DNA of 52,475 nt. Origin: Nitrospirota bacterium (lineage in GTDB: Bacteria; Nitrospirota; Nitrospiria; JBHHUU01). The position numbers and the translations under genes are program-made. Every line of letters starts with the position of its first letter. Position 1 is the stretch's first letter. Below the pieces are notes generated by a model. It did no database searches. It saw only the letters and a list, made by a program, of their open reading frames with translations, and was not told the origin of the DNA. The stretch covers positions 1 through 52,475 of the forward strand of contig JBHHUU010000001.1 in assembly GCA_046753905.1 (NCBI GenBank), read 5' to 3'. Below, piece after piece: positions 25,534 through 33,510 of the stretch.

Positions 25534-28092
25534 ATGCTGAAATATACAGTCTCAAGACCATCACGTTATATTGGCGGAGAGATAAATTCTGTCAGGAAAG
25601 ATTTAACAGAGGGCAGGATAAAGATAGTCCTAATCTTTCCTGACCTTTATGAGATTGGTGTATCCCATTCAGGTCTTAAAATACTCTATCAGATATTAAA
25701 TGACAGAGATGATGCGGCAGTTGAGAGGGCGTATGCTCCATGGACAGATTATGAAGAGATGATGATCCGGAAGAATATGCCCCTTGTCAGTTTGGAATCT
25801 GCTCTTCCTATCAGGGAGTTTGATATTATTGGATTTACACTCCCTTATGAATTGACATTTACAAATATTCTCAACATATTAAAACTTTCAGATATCCCTT
25901 TATACGCCTATGACAGAGACAGAGAATATCCTCTGATTATTGGCGGCGGTTCATCTGTGTTTAATCCTGAACCATTGGCAGATTTCTTTGATGCCTTTAT
26001 CTTAGGGGATGGAGAAGATGTAGTTAATGAGGTTGTAGACATATATCAGGAGTGGAAGAGAGATGTGGGATCAAAGGAGGAAATCCTGAAAGTATTAGCA
26101 CGAATAGAAGGTGTATATGTACCGTCTCTTTATAAGATATGTTATAGAGGTAATATTATTGATTCTGTCTCTCCGCTTTATCCAGCACCTTCAAAAGTAA
26201 GAAGGAGGATAGTTAATGACCTGAATAATGCACAATATGCAGATAGACCTGTGCTGCCTTATACAAAGGCTGTCCATGACAGGTTTTGTGTGGAGATATC
26301 AAGAGGTTGTACTCATGGATGCCGATTTTGTCAGGCAGGCATAATATATAGGCCTGTCAGGGACAGAAGCATGGACAATATAGAAGGGATCATAGATAAA
26401 GGTCTTAAGTATACCGGATATGGTGATGTCTCATTGTTATCTCTCAGTTCAGGAGATTATCCCTGTATAGCTCTTCTTTTGACAAGACTTATGGATAAAT
26501 ATGAAAAAGACAGAGTCTCCTTTTCTCTGCCGTCTTTAAGAGTTGGTACATTAACACCAGATGTTTTAGAACAGATAAAGAGGGTAAAAAGGTCAGGATT
26601 TACTCTTGCACCTGAGGCAGGAACCAATAAGCTAAGGCAGGTAATCAATAAAGATATTTCAGATGATGAGCTTGATGAGATAACAGGCAGATTATTTAAA
26701 GAGGGATGGAAAAAGATTAAGTTTTATTTTATGATAGGCTTGCCGACTGAAGAGGATAAAGACCTTCAGGGCATTATTGACCTCTGTAGAAGGGTGAATA
26801 GAAGGCGTGGCAAGATAAAGGCAAGTATATCTACATTTGTGCCAAAGGCACATACGCCGTTTCAATGGCTGGGACAGATATCTATTGAAGAGATCAAAAG
26901 GAGACAGAGGTTTATAAGAGATGAACTTAAGGGCATAAAGATAGAGGTTGATACACATAAGCCTGATGTTAGCCATATTGAGGCGGTATTATCGCGTGGA
27001 GATAGAAGATTGGGAGAGGTGTTGAGATTAACGATGGAAGATGGGTCAAGGTTTGATGGGTGGACAGATATATTTTCCTTTGATAGATGGAGACGGATAT
27101 TTGAGAAGACAGGGATAGACAGCTCATTCTATGCGTGCAGAGATATTGATATAAAAGAGATATTGCCATGGGAACATTTAGATACAGGAGTGACAAGGGA
27201 TTTTTTGATTGCCGAGCTTCATAATGCATATTCTGGAACGACTACCTCTGATTGTCGTTGGGGGAAATGTCATGATTGCGGGGTATGTATTAAGAAAGGG
27301 GACATGTTAATAAGTCCTGTGTCGGCAGGGGGCAGGGAGCAGGGGGCAGAAAACGGGAATCAAGGATTAAGGATCAGGGATCAGATAAAGGGTCTCCCCG
27401 GAATTGGTTATAGATATCGTATAAGATTTTCCAAAGAGGGTAAACTCCGTTTTCTTTCCCATCTTGAGCTTATAGATACTATCTCAAGGTCACTCAGAAG
27501 AACAGGACTGCCTCTTTCTTTCTCATCTGGATTTACACCACATATAGAGATATCATTTGGTCCTGCCCTTTCTGTGGGGGTTGAGTCTATCTCTGAATAT
27601 ATGGATATAACAATATCACAACCAATAGACCCAGAATATATAAAAGAGGTCATCAATAGAAATATGCCTGATGGTATTTGTATTCTGGAAACGAGGAGAA
27701 TACTACCTGACTCTAATAGTCTCAGTAAAATTATCTCTGGTTATTCGTATGAGATAGAGGTAAATAGTGGTCTATTTAAACTTGATAAGCAGATACTGAA
27801 CAGATTTCTCATTATGGATGAGATACTGGTAAATAAGACTACAAATAGAGGCAAAAAAGTAGTTGATGTAAGACCTTTTATTGAAAGGTGTGAATTGATG
27901 ACGAATGCTGAAAAGAGGATATTTCTCTTTTTAAAGAATCAGAATAATAATATATGCAGACCGCAGGATGTCTTACAGGGAATAATAAACTTTATTAATG
28001 GGAATGAAAAGAGTATATTAAAGAATGGGGATGCAAAAGTAACAAGAACAGGGATGTATGTGAACAGGGATGGGCAATGGTGTAAACCATAA
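25534..28092 (+). CDS. Radical SAM protein fused to a DUF2344-like C-terminal domain (the family usually found upstream of rng/rne)
   Basis: CTHGCRFC (CX3CX2C) at about residue 259. The C-terminal part starts at YRYRIRFSKEGKLRFLSHLE. The family names are from memory (TIGR03960 plus TIGR03936). Confidence 0.75.
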   Translation: MLKYTVSRPSRYIGGEINSVRKDLTEGRIKIVLIFPDLYEIGVSHSGLKILYQILNDRDDAAVERAYAPWTDYEEMMIRKNMPLVSLESALPIREFDIIGFTLPYELTFTNILNILKLSDIPLYAYDRDREYPLIIGGGSSVFNPEPLADFFDAFILGDGEDVVNEVVDIYQEWKRDVGSKEEILKVLARIEGVYVPSLYKICYRGNIIDSVSPLYPAPSKVRRRIVNDLNNAQYADRPVLPYTKAVHDRFCVEISRGCTHGCRFCQAGIIYRPVRDRSMDNIEGIIDKGLKYTGYGDVSLLSLSSGDYPCIALLLTRLMDKYEKDRVSFSLPSLRVGTLTPDVLEQIKRVKRSGFTLAPEAGTNKLRQVINKDISDDELDEITGRLFKEGWKKIKFYFMIGLPTEEDKDLQGIIDLCRRVNRRRGKIKASISTFVPKAHTPFQWLGQISIEEIKRRQRFIRDELKGIKIEVDTHKPDVSHIEAVLSRGDRRLGEVLRLTMEDGSRFDGWTDIFSFDRWRRIFEKTGIDSSFYACRDIDIKEILPWEHLDTGVTRDFLIAELHNAYSGTTTSDCRWGKCHDCGVCIKKGDMLISPVSAGGREQGAENGNQGLRIRDQIKGLPGIGYRYRIRFSKEGKLRFLSHLELIDTISRSLRRTGLPLSFSSGFTPHIEISFGPALSVGVESISEYMDITISQPIDPEYIKEVINRNMPDGICILETRRILPDSNSLSKIISGYSYEIEVNSGLFKLDKQILNRFLIMDEILVNKTTNRGKKVVDVRPFIERCELMTNAEKRIFLFLKNQNNNICRPQDVLQGIINFINGNEKSILKNGDAKVTRTGMYVNRDGQWCKP
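27324..27386. repeat. Nine tandem heptamers forming the interdomain linker of the rSAM/DUF2344 gene
   Basis: ggcaggg ggcaggg agcaggg ggcagaa aacggga atcaagg attaagg atcaggg atcagat. It is 63 bp, or 21 codons. Confidence 0.85.
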
Positions 28093-28108
28093 GGGAGAAG
28101 AGAAAATT

Positions 28109-29629
28109 ATGGCGTGTGAAATAATAATAAATGTCGCAAAAGAAGAATCCAGGGTTGCGCTTTTAGAGAATAAGGTGGTTACAGAATTATATGTTGACCG
28201 CAACAAGAATAGTAATATAGTCGGAGCAATATATAAAGGAAAGGTAATAAAAATTCTTCCTGGTATGCAGGCATCTTTTGTTGAGATAGGACTTCAAAGA
28301 GCTGCCTTTTTATATGTATCAGATATAATTGCAAATTATGATGATTACTCCAAAGTTATGGAAAATGGCTCAGAATATCAGATAGAGTCAAACGATGAAA
28401 TGGGAAAGGGAAGGAGAAATGATCGCCAGATACCAATAGAGGATATACTTCAGGATGGACAGGATATATTGGTTCAGGTATCAAAAGATTTTATCGGGAC
28501 TAAAGGACCACGGGTAACTACATATATATCTTTACCTGGTCGTTACCTTGTCTATATGCCAACTGTAAATCATGTAGGTATATCACGAAGGATTGTCAAT
28601 GAAGAGGAAAGGACAAGGTTAAAGAATATAATAATGAGAATGAAGAAACCTGCAGATGGTTATATTGTTAGAACTGTCAGTGAAGGAATAGGGGAGGAAG
28701 AATTTAGGGCAGATATGGAATTTTTAGAGCTGCTGTGGCAGAATGTCCTGAAAAAAAATGAGCATCTATCTGCTCCTGCCCGACTACATACTGATCTTGA
28801 TCTTATTCCAAGGGTTATAAGAGACCTTTTCAGCGACAGAATAGACAGGTTAGTTATTGATTCAAAAGAGGAATATGAAAAGATATCTGATTTTGTAGAA
28901 ACCTATATTCCTGATATGAGTTCAAGGATAGAGCTTTATGACAAAGATGAACCTATCTTTGAAGCATACGAGATTGAAATGGAGATATCCAAAGCCCTGA
29001 ATAGAAGAGTATGGTTGAAATCTGGTGGATATATAGTTATAGATCAGACAGAGGCATTGACAGTTATTGATGTAAATACAGGGAAATATGTGGGTAAAAG
29101 GAGCTTAGAAGATACTATCTTAAAGACAAATCTTGAAGCCGCTAAGGAAATAGCCTATCAGGTGCGCCTCAGAAACATTGGCGGAATTATTATAACAGAT
29201 TTCATTGATATGGAAAAAAAGAAAAATAGAGAAAAGGTCTTTTCAAGTTTACGTGATGCAATGATATCTGATAGAGCAAAAACAAATATTTTGAGGATAT
29301 CAGAATTAGGGCTTGTGGAGATGTCAAGAGAAAGGATAAGAGGGGATATCCAGAAGATACTATGTGAGCCATGTTCCTATTGCGAGGGTAAGGGTCATAT
29401 AAAATCTGCTGCAACAGTTTGCTACGAGATATTCAGAGAGATTACTCATATAGGACCTTCTTCGTCAGGCAAAGAGATTGCAATTAAGGCAAATCCTGAC
29501 ATAGCAAACCTCCTGTTTGATGAAGAAAGAGATAGTATTGAGGATCTTGAAGAAAAATATAATATAAAGATCATTGTTAAATCCGATCCAAACATTCATA
29601 TAGAGCAATTTGATATAGCAGTAACCTGA
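28109..29629 (+). CDS. rng: Ribonuclease G/E family endoribonuclease
   Basis: S1 domain (IYKGKVIKILPGMQASFVEIG), a catalytic core (IVIDQTEALTVIDVNTGK) and a CPXC zinc link (CSYCEGKG). ATG 28109 follows a GGGAG Shine-Dalgarno sequence. The ORF track starts at 28070, inside the upstream gene. Confidence 0.9.
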   Translation: MACEIIINVAKEESRVALLENKVVTELYVDRNKNSNIVGAIYKGKVIKILPGMQASFVEIGLQRAAFLYVSDIIANYDDYSKVMENGSEYQIESNDEMGKGRRNDRQIPIEDILQDGQDILVQVSKDFIGTKGPRVTTYISLPGRYLVYMPTVNHVGISRRIVNEEERTRLKNIIMRMKKPADGYIVRTVSEGIGEEEFRADMEFLELLWQNVLKKNEHLSAPARLHTDLDLIPRVIRDLFSDRIDRLVIDSKEEYEKISDFVETYIPDMSSRIELYDKDEPIFEAYEIEMEISKALNRRVWLKSGGYIVIDQTEALTVIDVNTGKYVGKRSLEDTILKTNLEAAKEIAYQVRLRNIGGIIITDFIDMEKKKNREKVFSSLRDAMISDRAKTNILRISELGLVEMSRERIRGDIQKILCEPCSYCEGKGHIKSAATVCYEIFREITHIGPSSSGKEIAIKANPDIANLLFDEERDSIEDLEEKYNIKIIVKSDPNIHIEQFDIAVT

Positions 29630-30025: not shown

Positions 30026-30063
30026 CCCCTCATCCTCTTCTCACATGAGATGAGTGTGAGGGG
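30026..30063 (+). terminator. Hairpin downstream of the nifU-like gene
   Basis: cccctcatc...gatgag..tgagggg imperfect stem. The T tract after it is weak. Confidence 0.35.
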
Positions 30064-30083: not shown

Positions 30084-31508
30084 ATGGAGAGAGAAATAGA
30101 AAGTAAGAGAGAAGATATATCTATAATATCTATAAGGGACAGACTTGTCAAAGATGGTCTCTATTCAACAGTAAGCTCTGACAATAACAGATGGAGAATT
30201 TCTACTGAACCATTTTTTTTATCAAGAGATGAGGTAGAGTTGTTAGAAAGACTTGGAGACTATTGTCTATTGTTTTATAAGGCATCAAACAGGCTCTATT
30301 ATGAGAGCATTAGTGGAAAACAGCCTGAGTGGGCGGCTGAATATCTTGATATCGGCAAGCCAGATACTATTGTAGAATATGGACGGATGAAGAGATTCAG
30401 AAGAGATATCCCGCATATTATAAGACCAGATATTATCTTAACAGATGATGGGATAATTGTTACGGAGCTTGATTCTGTTCCGGGGGGAATCGGGATAACC
30501 TCTGCCCTTTCAAGAGAATATGATAACCTGAGATACAATATAGTAGGAGATAGCATGGGGATGGTAAAGGGCTTTGCTGATATGATTCGGGATACTGCTG
30601 ATAATAATAGACCTGTGCTTGCTATTGTTGTGTCGGATGAATCCAGGGATTACATGCCTGAAATGAAATCATTAGGCAGGGATCTTAACGAAGAAGGCCT
30701 TATCACATATACTATAGAGCCTAAGGACCTGCACTTTTCAGAGGAATGTCTCTATCTCCATGATATGAACAAAAAGGTACCTGTTCACCTGCTTTATAGG
30801 TTTTTTGAACTATTTGATCTCAAGAATATACCAAAGTCAGAGCTTATAATGTATAGTGCAAAAAAAAGAAGGATTAAAGTAACACCGCCTTTTAAGGCAT
30901 TTTTAGAAGAGAAGATGTTATTCTTTCTCTTTCATCACCCTATGTTAAGGGAGTTCTGGATGAAGGAATTAGGAGATGAGGCATTCTCCTGTCTTCAGGG
31001 GATAATACCCGGGACATGGCTGTTAGACCCAGTAGATATTCCGCCTTATGCAGTGATTCCAGACCTGATGATTGGAGATAGACCTGTTAATGACTGGAGA
31101 CAACTATTTTCATGCACCCAGAAAGAGCGTCTATTTGTAATCAAACCATCTGGTTTTTCAGAACTGGCATGGGGGAGCAGAGGAGTATTCATAGGACATG
31201 ATATTTCTCAGAATGAGTGGTCAGATACAATAGATACAGCCCTGAGAGACTTTTCAGTCAGACCATATATACTTCAGGAGTTTCATAAAGGGAAAAGGGT
31301 CAGGATGAGATATTATGACTTTGACACACATATATTCAGGAATATGCAGGGAAGGGTCAGGTTATCGCCATATTATTTTGTAATAGATGGCAAGGCAAGG
31401 CTTTCAGGGATACTTGCCACAATATGCCCTGATGATAAAAAGATAATACATGGAATGGCAGATGCCATTATGTCACCATGTGCGATAAAAGGAGGTAACG
31501 ATATATGA
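30084..31508 (+). CDS. Hypothetical ATP-grasp-superfamily amide ligase (glutathionylspermidine-synthase-like or circularly permuted type)
   Basis: IIRPDIILTDDGIIVTELDSVPGGIG, and later LFVIKPSGFSELAWGSRGVFIG...PYILQEF, resemble ATP-grasp nucleotide-binding strands. This is pattern recognition only. Confidence 0.45.
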   Translation: MEREIESKREDISIISIRDRLVKDGLYSTVSSDNNRWRISTEPFFLSRDEVELLERLGDYCLLFYKASNRLYYESISGKQPEWAAEYLDIGKPDTIVEYGRMKRFRRDIPHIIRPDIILTDDGIIVTELDSVPGGIGITSALSREYDNLRYNIVGDSMGMVKGFADMIRDTADNNRPVLAIVVSDESRDYMPEMKSLGRDLNEEGLITYTIEPKDLHFSEECLYLHDMNKKVPVHLLYRFFELFDLKNIPKSELIMYSAKKRRIKVTPPFKAFLEEKMLFFLFHHPMLREFWMKELGDEAFSCLQGIIPGTWLLDPVDIPPYAVIPDLMIGDRPVNDWRQLFSCTQKERLFVIKPSGFSELAWGSRGVFIGHDISQNEWSDTIDTALRDFSVRPYILQEFHKGKRVRMRYYDFDTHIFRNMQGRVRLSPYYFVIDGKARLSGILATICPDDKKIIHGMADAIMSPCAIKGGNDI

Positions 31509-31750
31509 TACTTTATCAATTAGAGACATGTCCATATTGTAAGATGGTAAGAGATAAATTAGATGAACTAAAACTGAATTATGAAAAGATTAATGTTCCT
31601 GCACCAAGGGACGAAAGAAAAGAGGTTTTTGAGATATCAGGACAATATTTTGTGCCTGTCCTTAAAGATGATAATACCATATTAGATGATGAGGAGAAGA
31701 TAATAAAATATTTAGATGAGAAATATGCAAAAAAGGGGAGCCCTGAGTAA
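31505..31750 (+). CDS. Glutaredoxin-like small thioredoxin-fold protein
   Basis: 81 aa, with a CPYC active site at residues 9-12. Its ATG overlaps the upstream stop codon (ATGA). Confidence 0.8.
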   Translation: MILYQLETCPYCKMVRDKLDELKLNYEKINVPAPRDERKEVFEISGQYFVPVLKDDNTILDDEEKIIKYLDEKYAKKGSPE

Positions 31751-32820
31751 TGGAGAAATGGAAGGATATATTAAGAAAGAGTATTTCCAGCCCGGAGGAG
31801 TTAACAGAGTATCTTGATGTAGATATAGAAGAGATAAGAGAAGTGATAGATGTCTACCCAATGAGGATAACACCATATATGCTTGATTTGATTAAAGAAA
31901 AGGATGACCCCATAGCAAGACAGGTAATACCTTCACGAGATGAGATATTTAATCAATTCGGGAGCGATGATCCATTAAATGAGAATACCGATAGTCCAGT
32001 AGTCAATCTTGTCCATAGATATCCTGACAGGGCATTGTTGATAGTCACAAATCAGTGCCCTGCTTATTGCAGGTTCTGCACCAGAAAGAGATTGGTGGGA
32101 AGACCTGACTTTGTTACTAATGGCACAATCTACAGAGGGATTGAATATATCAGAGAACATAAAGAGATCAGGGATGTAATATTATCAGGAGGAGATCCTC
32201 TGCTTTTAACAGACGAACTCCTTGAAAGGATATTAAGGTCATTAAGGGATATTCCTCATGTAGAGATTATCAGGATAGGAACAAGAATCCCCTGCACTCT
32301 GCCTCAGCGGATTACATCAGGGCTTTGTAAGGTATTAAAGAGATACCATCCAGTCTATATTAATCTGCACTTTAACCACCCTGATGAGATCACACCTGAA
32401 AGCAGACAGGCGACTGAAATGCTTGCTGATACAGGGATACCTCTTGGGTGTCAGACTGTATTGTTAAAAGGCATAAATGACGACCCTGATACAATGAAGA
32501 GACTAATGCACAGACTTCTTGAGATACGGGTCAGACCTTATTATCTATATCAGGCTGATATAGTAAATGGCACGGATCATTTCAGAACAACCGTAGAATG
32601 CGGTCTGGATGTTATCCGTTCCCTGCATGGATTTACTTCAGGGTTGGCAATTCCAAACTATGTGATAGATACGCCCGGTGGAGGCGGAAAGATAACTATC
32701 CTCCCGAATGACTTTGTATTGCATTTTGACAATAAAGAGATAATCCTTAAAAATTACGAGAATAATACATATAAGTATCCTCAGATAACAGAGCCAATGG
32801 TGAAAATTTCCTCTTCTTAG
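31750..32820 (+). CDS. kamA: KamA-family radical SAM 2,3-aminomutase (lysine 2,3-aminomutase-like, short form)
   Basis: CPAYCRFCTRK, SGGDPLLL, IPHVEIIRIGTRIPCTLPQRIT, YHPVYINLHFNHPDEIT, RVRPYYLYQADIV and VIDTPGGGGK blocks closely track clostridial LAM. It lacks the C-terminal region of about 60 aa. Confidence 0.85.
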   Translation: MEKWKDILRKSISSPEELTEYLDVDIEEIREVIDVYPMRITPYMLDLIKEKDDPIARQVIPSRDEIFNQFGSDDPLNENTDSPVVNLVHRYPDRALLIVTNQCPAYCRFCTRKRLVGRPDFVTNGTIYRGIEYIREHKEIRDVILSGGDPLLLTDELLERILRSLRDIPHVEIIRIGTRIPCTLPQRITSGLCKVLKRYHPVYINLHFNHPDEITPESRQATEMLADTGIPLGCQTVLLKGINDDPDTMKRLMHRLLEIRVRPYYLYQADIVNGTDHFRTTVECGLDVIRSLHGFTSGLAIPNYVIDTPGGGGKITILPNDFVLHFDNKEIILKNYENNTYKYPQITEPMVKISSS

Positions 32821-32853: not shown

Positions 32854-33510
32854 ATGAATAATCGAAATATAGACAGGGTTATAGAGATACTCAAAAGAGA
32901 GATTAAGAGGTGGCAAGTCCCTATTGTTGGTGAAGTTGCAAATAAGACACGCGATCCGTATAAGGTCATTATCTCCTGTCTCCTCAGTTTGAGGACTAAG
33001 GATGAGACAACTTCTCAGGCAGTGGAAAGACTCTTCAGATTGGCTGATAATCCAGAGGATATAGTAAAGATACCTGTAAAGAAGATTGAAGAGGCAATAT
33101 ATCCTGTTGGATTTTATAAGGTAAAGGCAAGGAATATAATTAATATCTCAAATGACCTTATTAAAAGATATAATTCAATAGTGCCTGATGATATTGATGA
33201 ATTATTAACGTTCAAGGGTGTAGGGAGAAAGACTGCAAACCTTGTTGTCACTCTTGCATATAACAGGGAAGGGATATGTGTTGATACACATGTGCACAGG
33301 ATATCAAACAGGCTTGGTTATCTGAAGACAGAGAACCCTGATGAAACGGAGAGAGTGTTGAGGAAGAAACTCCCGAAAAAATACTGGATAATATATAATG
33401 ATCTCCTTGTTACATTTGGTCAGAATCTGTGTCGCCCCATCTCTCCTTTTTGCAGTACTTGCAAGATATTTAGATATTGTGACAGGGCAGGAGTAACAAA
33501 GAGCAGATAG
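32854..33510 (+). CDS. nth: Endonuclease III
   Basis: HhH-GPD (LTFKGVGRKTANLV, VDTHVHRI) and a 4Fe-4S cluster loop (CRPISPFCSTCKIFRYC). Confidence 0.9.
   Translation: MNNRNIDRVIEILKREIKRWQVPIVGEVANKTRDPYKVIISCLLSLRTKDETTSQAVERLFRLADNPEDIVKIPVKKIEEAIYPVGFYKVKARNIINISNDLIKRYNSIVPDDIDELLTFKGVGRKTANLVVTLAYNREGICVDTHVHRISNRLGYLKTENPDETERVLRKKLPKKYWIIYNDLLVTFGQNLCRPISPFCSTCKIFRYCDRAGVTKSR

Follow-up and report, generated by a model that had tools for sequence, protein, structure and literature searches.

What would a lysine 2,3-aminomutase be for when the genes beside it belong to none of the known beta-lysine pathways? The question is raised by a three-gene operon in a 52,475-nucleotide (nt) stretch of Nitrospirota DNA (GenBank assembly GCA_046753905.1, contig JBHHUU010000001.1, positions 1 to 52,475), which in its entirety we call the window. 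The operon's genes, all taken from the list of open reading frames (ORFs), are as follows:

30084–31508, + strand: gene for a 474-amino-acid (aa) ligase, its ATP-grasp fold assigned from a structural model
31505–31750, + strand: gene for an 81-aa CPYC glutaredoxin/GST-N-like protein, assigned from a Pfam match
31750–32820, + strand: gene for a 356-aa short KamA-family radical S-adenosylmethionine (SAM)/pyridoxal phosphate (PLP) aminomutase, assigned from TIGR00238

An earlier note on this DNA had suggested that the ligase joins beta-lysine, made by the aminomutase, to an amine, thiol or protein acceptor. We read the operon as a module of two biosynthetic enzymes, to which a redox partner is optional; it would take lysine to beta-lysine and then to an ATP-dependent amide conjugate, and we judge that this reading could go either way. 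The gene anatomy, folds, conserved residues, co-conservation and co-phylogeny on which it builds are direct observations. The earlier note was right that the familiar beta-lysine contexts are absent: within the window, as distinct from the whole genome, we found no kamDE, kdd, kce, kal, ablB, epmA, efp or gshA/B, and a GNAT, whether of the AblB type (beta-lysine acetyltransferase) or any other, is missing from both operon and window.

The 474-aa protein is poorly served by existing sequence models. It has no Pfam match even at an E value of 10, be it to GSP_synth, GSH_synth_ATP or CP_ATPgrasp, no NCBIfam or PADLOC match, and neither phmmer nor a profile search found anything in the PDB; NCBI holds an identical protein, annotated as hypothetical, from a Nitrospirota metagenome-assembled genome (MAG). 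Structure is more informative. An AlphaFold (AF2) model built on 50 homologues (predicted local distance difference test, pLDDT, 90.9; predicted template modelling score, pTM, 0.91) was compared with the PDB using Foldseek and matched the ATP-grasp fold of glutathione synthetase (GS) and glutathionylspermidine synthetase (GspS) with probability 1.00, which bears out the ATP-grasp-like character claimed earlier. The top matches were eukaryotic GS and soybean homoglutathione synthetase (hGS), with E values of 1e-15 to 1e-13 and template modelling (TM) scores of 0.62–0.65 over the full length, followed in order by the putative GspS 3n6x, Escherichia coli YjfC and YgiC, the fungal enzyme Cp1B and E. 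coli GspS (individual E values: 1.9e-15 for 8fbz, 1.7e-12 for 3n6x, 4.6e-12 for YjfC and 1.3e-10 for GspS).

Profile comparison gave a fainter signal. With hhalign, a broadened 156-sequence profile matched E. coli YgiC/YjfC/Gss with 63% probability (P 7e-5), collinear over 360 columns, while four authentic GS sequences gave a non-significant 1.8%; the distant relative P0258 reached 19 bits against Pfam GSP_synth, below the cut-off of 29. The family has 73 near-invariant positions, including R114, E128, D130, E186, R239, K277, K354 and Q398; further invariant acidic residues are E193, E242, D245, E275, E276, D315 and D373. In a low-confidence alignment, R114, E128/D130, R239, K277 and K354 line up with hGS R125, E144/N146, R267, K305 and K364, and, with the same caution, R114-P-D116, E128-L-D130, R239, K277, K354 and Q398 lie opposite the catalytic R-x-D, E-x-N, K and Q of GS and GspS. 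These residues are consistent with a ligase that forms an acyl phosphate. Going by the structural model, the protein is probably a circularly permuted ATP-grasp amide ligase of the GS/GspS type from an unannotated family, and its activity is predicted from that fold.

This family is large. Clustering at 90% identity left at least 7,950 homologues, all of them unnamed, and clustering at 50% left 1,661 representatives, nearly all single-domain proteins of 420–500 aa; no domain fusions were found among 150 representatives (the 10 long or divergent ones were scanned). Members occur in Nitrospirota, Verrucomicrobiota, Poribacteria and other phyla, and identity across phyla is 41–58%.

The aminomutase is easier to place. 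It scores 302 bits against the KamA family model TIGR00238 (cut-off 199), and its top-scoring equivalog model is AblA (TIGR03820: 444 bits, below the cut-off of 525), for which the Nitrospira orthologue scores 428 and a sister-clade KamA 481. The models for glutamate 2,3-aminomutase (TIGR04368: 416 bits, cut-off 650), arginine 2,3-aminomutase (354 bits, cut-off 600) and EpmB (TIGR03821: 240 bits, cut-off 369) also stay below their cut-offs. The earlier note had likened the protein to clostridial lysine 2,3-aminomutase (LAM), and so it proved: it aligns to the Clostridium subterminale enzyme (2a5h) with an E value of 1e-108 and 49% identity. The cluster motif CxxxCxxC is present (C103/C107/C110, equivalent to LAM C125/C129/C132), as are the PLP lysine K314 (LAM K337) and the carboxylate-binding R112 (LAM R134). 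LAM's inter-subunit zinc ligands, which we take to be Cys268 and C-terminal cysteines (as in 2a5h), are not kept: C268 is replaced by D245, and the protein stops short of the region with the C-terminal cysteines, making it a “short” form.

Substrate specificity in this family turns on a pair of aspartates. Every LAM-family member uses them to bind lysine, glutamate 2,3-aminomutases have Lys and Asn in their place, and SFLD treats the pair as setting lysine versus glutamate specificity (PMC3965090); the earlier note had likewise named the pair and its replacement. Here both are retained, as D270 (LAM D293) and D307 (LAM D330) within the motifs YQADI and VIDTPGGGG, and the pair and the PLP lysine are invariant across 90 of 90 KamA homologues. 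Because the cluster, PLP, carboxylate-binding and epsilon-amino-binding residues are all conserved, L-lysine is the likeliest substrate and beta-lysine the likeliest product; the protein is therefore most likely a lysine 2,3-aminomutase acting on free L-lysine, as predicted from its residues. We rejected its assignment as a glutamate 2,3-aminomutase, given the TIGR04368 score and the two aspartates, and as EpmB, given the TIGR03821 score, 33% identity to E. coli EpmB and the outgroup position of EpmB in the tree described below. Two longer KamA homologues, P0271 (563 aa) and P0337 (568 aa), carry a degenerate second C-terminal half without the PLP motif PGGGGK; these are partial internal duplications, which rules them out as domain fusions.

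Do the two enzymes belong together? We surveyed 160 loci: 80 genome loci found with the ligase as query and 80 metagenome loci found with KamA. Where the sequence extends far enough beyond the ligase, Nitrospirota genome loci have KamA after it without exception (26 of 26), usually with the glutaredoxin between them, and the ligase lies directly upstream of KamA in about 25 of the 80 metagenome loci. Both genes occur in 51 loci, and in 49 of these they run ligase to KamA on one strand. Chance does not explain an order that recurs in 49 of 51 independent loci, and the co-occurrence that the earlier note had proposed to check is real. A glutaredoxin gene separates the pair in 36 of the 49 collinear loci; in the other 13, ligase and KamA are spaced by 36–294 nt, and in an “Anaerolineae” MAG they are 4 nt apart.

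The flanking genes differ by lineage: nifU and nth in the window, an LPG_synthase_C-like gene and DCD in Nitrospirales, GDPD and dCTP deaminase elsewhere. Since the pair persists through these changes, gene order points to a functional module, not frozen synteny. An occasional fourth ORF in the operon (CrcB, GDPD, Mrp/ApbC or dCTP deaminase) is uninformative. As a separate observation, 23 Nitrospirales loci (L001–L025, L032; e.g., L032:3999-5582, minus strand) have a gene divergent from the ligase for a soluble protein of about 520 aa, in which a CxxCxxCC domain is joined to LPG_synthase_C, the aminoacyl-tRNA-dependent lysyl-transferase domain of MprF. Lysine-related like the aminomutase, this enzyme is encoded neither in the window nor in most other loci.

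The KamA phylogeny agrees with the gene order. A neighbour-joining tree with E. coli EpmB as its root places the ligase-linked KamAs in one monophyletic group, made up of 37 linked sequences and seven from contigs that end upstream, with none from any other operon type, and EpmB lies at the greatest distance from the window's aminomutase (0.72). The sole exception in this clade, among about 40 loci with room upstream, is L119, whose KamA (L119:2636-3921) has a glutaredoxin and no ligase gene in the 2.6 kilobases (kb) upstream. None of the three tests that the earlier note had set for its proposal (ligase fold, co-conservation, placement relative to the EpmB clade) refuted it.

The closest relatives of these aminomutases repeat the pattern with different partners. 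Sister-clade KamAs (55–58% identity, lysine-type residues kept) belong to an operon in which two Ddl-like ATP-grasp genes and a RimI-like GNAT gene of about 160 aa precede KamA (L101–L160; e.g., L154:2392-6104, L117:2450-6110), often behind V-type ATPase B/D genes. No protein of this operon reaches an NCBIfam equivalog cut-off, and the GNAT is below all cut-offs. As two KamA branches each go with ATP-dependent ligases, and these differ in architecture, the comparison supports onward ligation of the beta-amino acid, with coupling to ATP-dependent ligation seemingly a recurring theme of this aminomutase lineage. The sister operon may be an undescribed pathway to N-acylated beta-lysine peptides, and it hints at a broader unexplored family of beta-lysine-containing peptides.

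The third gene product is the CPYC thioredoxin-fold protein that the earlier note had recognised, now with Pfam matches to GST_N_3 (54 bits, cut-off 22) and Glutaredoxin (46 bits, cut-off 23). Its CxxC is retained in 37 of 38 operon-linked homologues (as CPEC, CPYC, CPDC, CPFC or CGYC), and the 38 also keep the GST-N/Grx2-like motifs SGQ..VPVL and L.(D/E).E.I..YL.

We propose that the parts work together as follows. Beta-lysine would be formed from free L-lysine by the short KamA, with the help of SAM, a [4Fe-4S] cluster and PLP. The ligase would use ATP to phosphorylate a carboxylate, and attack by an amine would then yield an amide, ADP and Pi. Beta-lysine from the neighbouring aminomutase would be one of the two substrates, and would more plausibly be the incoming amine than the activated acid, by analogy with beta-alanine for hGS, polyamines for GspS/YgiC and an amino acid for Cp1B. 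The glutaredoxin could keep the oxygen-sensitive aminomutase or the ligase's thiols reduced, or could act on a thiol-bearing product.

Several observations weigh against this proposal. At the sequence level, the ligase has weak ties to known families, whether to the GspS type, to GS or to any Pfam family, and the residue correspondences are of low confidence. The glutaredoxin is missing from 13 of the 49 collinear loci. No riboswitch or other element that might name a ligand was found in the window and seven related loci, and our literature search found no account of the operon, of a beta-lysine-using ATP-grasp ligase or of this aminomutase in Nitrospira. The ligase also occurs without an adjacent KamA, in about 44 of 46 Verrucomicrobiota loci and all five Poribacteria loci (within 6–10 kb), and in three further contexts the Verrucomicrobial KamA lineage did not adjoin it. 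Between ligases with and without a linked KamA, 73 positions are common to both groups at 97% identity or more and a single position (S428 to C) sets them apart consistently, so their chemistry is very likely the same, and the ligase reaction may, on this comparison, not need beta-lysine. The fold, the co-conservation and the lysine-type residues of the earlier proposal have thus held up, whereas beta-lysine as the ligase's substrate, along with the enzyme activities, their metabolic coupling and the identities of the second substrate and product, is something we infer.

The unlinked ligases lead to the rival that survives best, in which the ligase is a housekeeping enzyme with substrates unrelated to beta-lysine (e.g., a glutathione-synthetase analogue or another peptide/amine ligase) and in Nitrospirota the aminomutase and glutaredoxin are encoded with it simply for co-regulation or through an indirect link such as a common redox or Fe-S need. 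Besides the near-invariant positions shared with ligases that have no KamA nearby, the cross-phylum identity and the roughly 1,660 clusters suggest a core function, and the Verrucomicrobiota gene follows proA in a neighbourhood devoted to amino-acid biosynthesis. Set against this, the linked KamAs form a dedicated clade in which the ligase is missing just once, translational coupling and close spacing persist where the glutaredoxin is lost, and the pair stays together although its flanks vary. Verrucomicrobiota moreover have abundant LAM-like KamA of 412 aa elsewhere, so unlinked co-occurrence is possible there. We consider the housekeeping explanation unlikely, though it deserves to be kept in view.

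Some details of these KamA-unlinked loci are worth recording. The ligase directly follows proA (gamma-glutamyl phosphate reductase) in 19 Verrucomicrobiota loci (within L036–L079; e.g., L041:4298-5578), and an ArgA-like kinase/GNAT gene often lies upstream of the two; in Poribacteria the ligase follows serA. This placement may reflect a tie to glutamate-family metabolism or plain synteny. Two cases in which ligase and KamA are convergent (L044 and L057) look incidental. Two unannotated 455-aa genes beside Verrucomicrobial KamA were discarded as candidate partners, being mutually unrelated (a DEAD-box helicase and a secreted protein).

Could the amide instead be a compatible solute? ATP-dependent amide formation, in place of the acetylation that gives N-epsilon-acetyl-beta-lysine, would then yield an amide of beta-lysine that is zwitterionic or neutral. 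AblA-type beta-lysine is a known osmolyte precursor, the AblA model gives the aminomutase its best score, and the sister operon, which combines a GNAT with two ATP-grasp genes, follows a logic similar to that of osmolyte dipeptide pathways. However, the module is near-universal in Nitrospirota of freshwater, soil, groundwater and wastewater, not just of saline habitats, the glutaredoxin has no obvious role in osmolyte synthesis, and no transporter or osmoregulatory gene is linked. We therefore regard an osmolyte as improbable.

More speculative still is the idea, drawn by analogy, that Nitrospirota (including nitrite oxidisers and comammox Nitrospira) make a new low-molecular-weight thiol: the ligase would join beta-lysine to a Cys-containing peptide, and the glutaredoxin would be the dedicated redoxin of this glutathione analogue. 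Homoglutathione (with beta-alanine) and glutathionylspermidine (with a polyamine) are the parallels, and we would give the idea little credence at present.

ATP-grasp enzymes can modify proteins, RimK being an example. The operon might accordingly carry out an EpmA-like beta-lysylation of a protein or peptide with an ATP-grasp enzyme in place of a tRNA-synthetase paralogue; EF-P beta-lysylation is the sole widespread housekeeping use of beta-lysine in bacteria, and RefSeq names YgiC and YjfC peptide-spermidine ligases, but with no efp in the window or the 160 related loci, an aminomutase far from EpmB, no conserved small precursor-peptide gene in the operon and small-molecule ligases as the closest structural matches, we find this very improbable. 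A link to EF-P itself was rejected on the first two of these grounds, a riboswitch-controlled unit was excluded within the libraries scanned, and a defence system was excluded as PADLOC gave no match.

Returning to the proposed module, its layout in the window also favours joint expression. The earlier note had inferred co-expression from overlapping ORFs, and its ORF coordinates and the ATGA overlap at 31505–31508 (ligase/glutaredoxin) are exact; the TAATG of the glutaredoxin/KamA junction, which has a GGGGAG Shine-Dalgarno sequence upstream, starts at 31748 (31748–31752) and not at 31747. Judging from these junctions, the glutaredoxin gene appears translationally coupled to both neighbours. 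Two further features bear on expression:

31491–31496, + strand: Shine-Dalgarno sequence AGGAGG of the glutaredoxin gene, read from the sequence, within the end of the ligase gene
30026–30063, + strand: RNA hairpin in the interval between nifU and the ligase gene, found by folding

The hairpin has a minimum free energy of -34 kcal/mol and a z-score of -4.2, equalled by none of 200 shuffles. Its U-tract behind the stem is weak and a consensus terminator scan did not call it; consensus scans for promoters and terminators were uninformative generally. From its folding it is likely a terminator or boundary, and the three genes therefore probably form a transcription unit of their own.

The gene 5' of the operon is nifU-like, an arrangement seen in just two related loci, and an endonuclease III gene (nth) lies 33 nt beyond KamA. 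The rest of the window is housekeeping in character (lpxC, hflKC, hemAC, RNase G, pyruvate carboxylase, lpxAD/fabZ, phoBR). Within it, 25534–29629 spans two genes, that for an 852-aa radical-SAM protein (Radical_SAM_N2, Radical_SAM and DUF2344) and that for RNase G; the first runs 23 nt into the second (28070–28092), which suggests that these two are also translationally coupled. The HhH-GPD/endonuclease III gene after KamA (32854–33510) has a counterpart in the same position in a Verrucomicrobia MAG (L169:11547-12200); that genome is unrelated and its KamA is from a different clade, and the shared order is probably coincidence.

Why pursue such an operon? The ligase family is large and widespread, yet it is unnamed, is modelled in neither Pfam nor NCBIfam and has drawn no literature. 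Nitrospirota are key to global nitrification, and their operon, with its dedicated KamA clade, offers a testable handle on the ligase's substrate. The product, if found, would add a new fate of beta-lysine to fermentation, N-acetyl-beta-lysine, EF-P modification and antibiotics, and would give a function to thousands of “hypothetical proteins”.

Known systems resemble the operon in different respects. AblA/AblB, which makes N-epsilon-acetyl-beta-lysine in methanogens and some bacteria, likewise encodes a KamA-type enzyme beside one that derivatises beta-lysine. The operon differs in having an ATP-grasp ligase and a glutaredoxin in place of an AblB-type acetyltransferase, and its product would be an ATP-dependent amide, not an acetamide. 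In the EpmB/EpmA/EF-P system, a short KamA without the clostridial C-terminal zinc region feeds beta-lysine to an ATP-dependent ligase, as we suppose for the operon; EpmA, however, is a class II tRNA-synthetase paralogue, whereas the operon's ligase has the ATP-grasp fold. Cp1B, from the fungal E-64 pathway (PDB 9cjn), shares the ligase's fold class (Foldseek E value 1e-11) and works as a stand-alone amide ligase on small molecules, coupling a carboxylic acid to an amino acid (PMC12568646), but it belongs to fungal secondary metabolism, has unrelated substrates and lacks an aminomutase partner.

The closest parallels are in the GS/GspS group. Gss, YgiC and YjfC (Pfam GSP_synth) share the ligase's fold (Foldseek E values of 1e-12 to 1e-9), are its best profile-profile match and have R-x-D, E-x-N/D and K-P motifs that align with it at low confidence. 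The operon's ligase differs in its gene context, in lacking an amidase fusion and in being about 90 aa longer than YgiC. Gss, YgiC and YjfC link the carboxylate of a peptide to a cationic amine, the kind of molecule that beta-lysine resembles. Eukaryotic GS and soybean hGS are the best structural match, collinear over the full length with a TM score of up to 0.65, even though identity is 11–14%, the ligase has no GS Pfam match, and the Gly-rich and A-loops differ. It is hGS that adds a beta-amino acid, beta-alanine, to gamma-Glu-Cys, and a neighbouring glutaredoxin, as in the operon, fits thiol chemistry of this kind.

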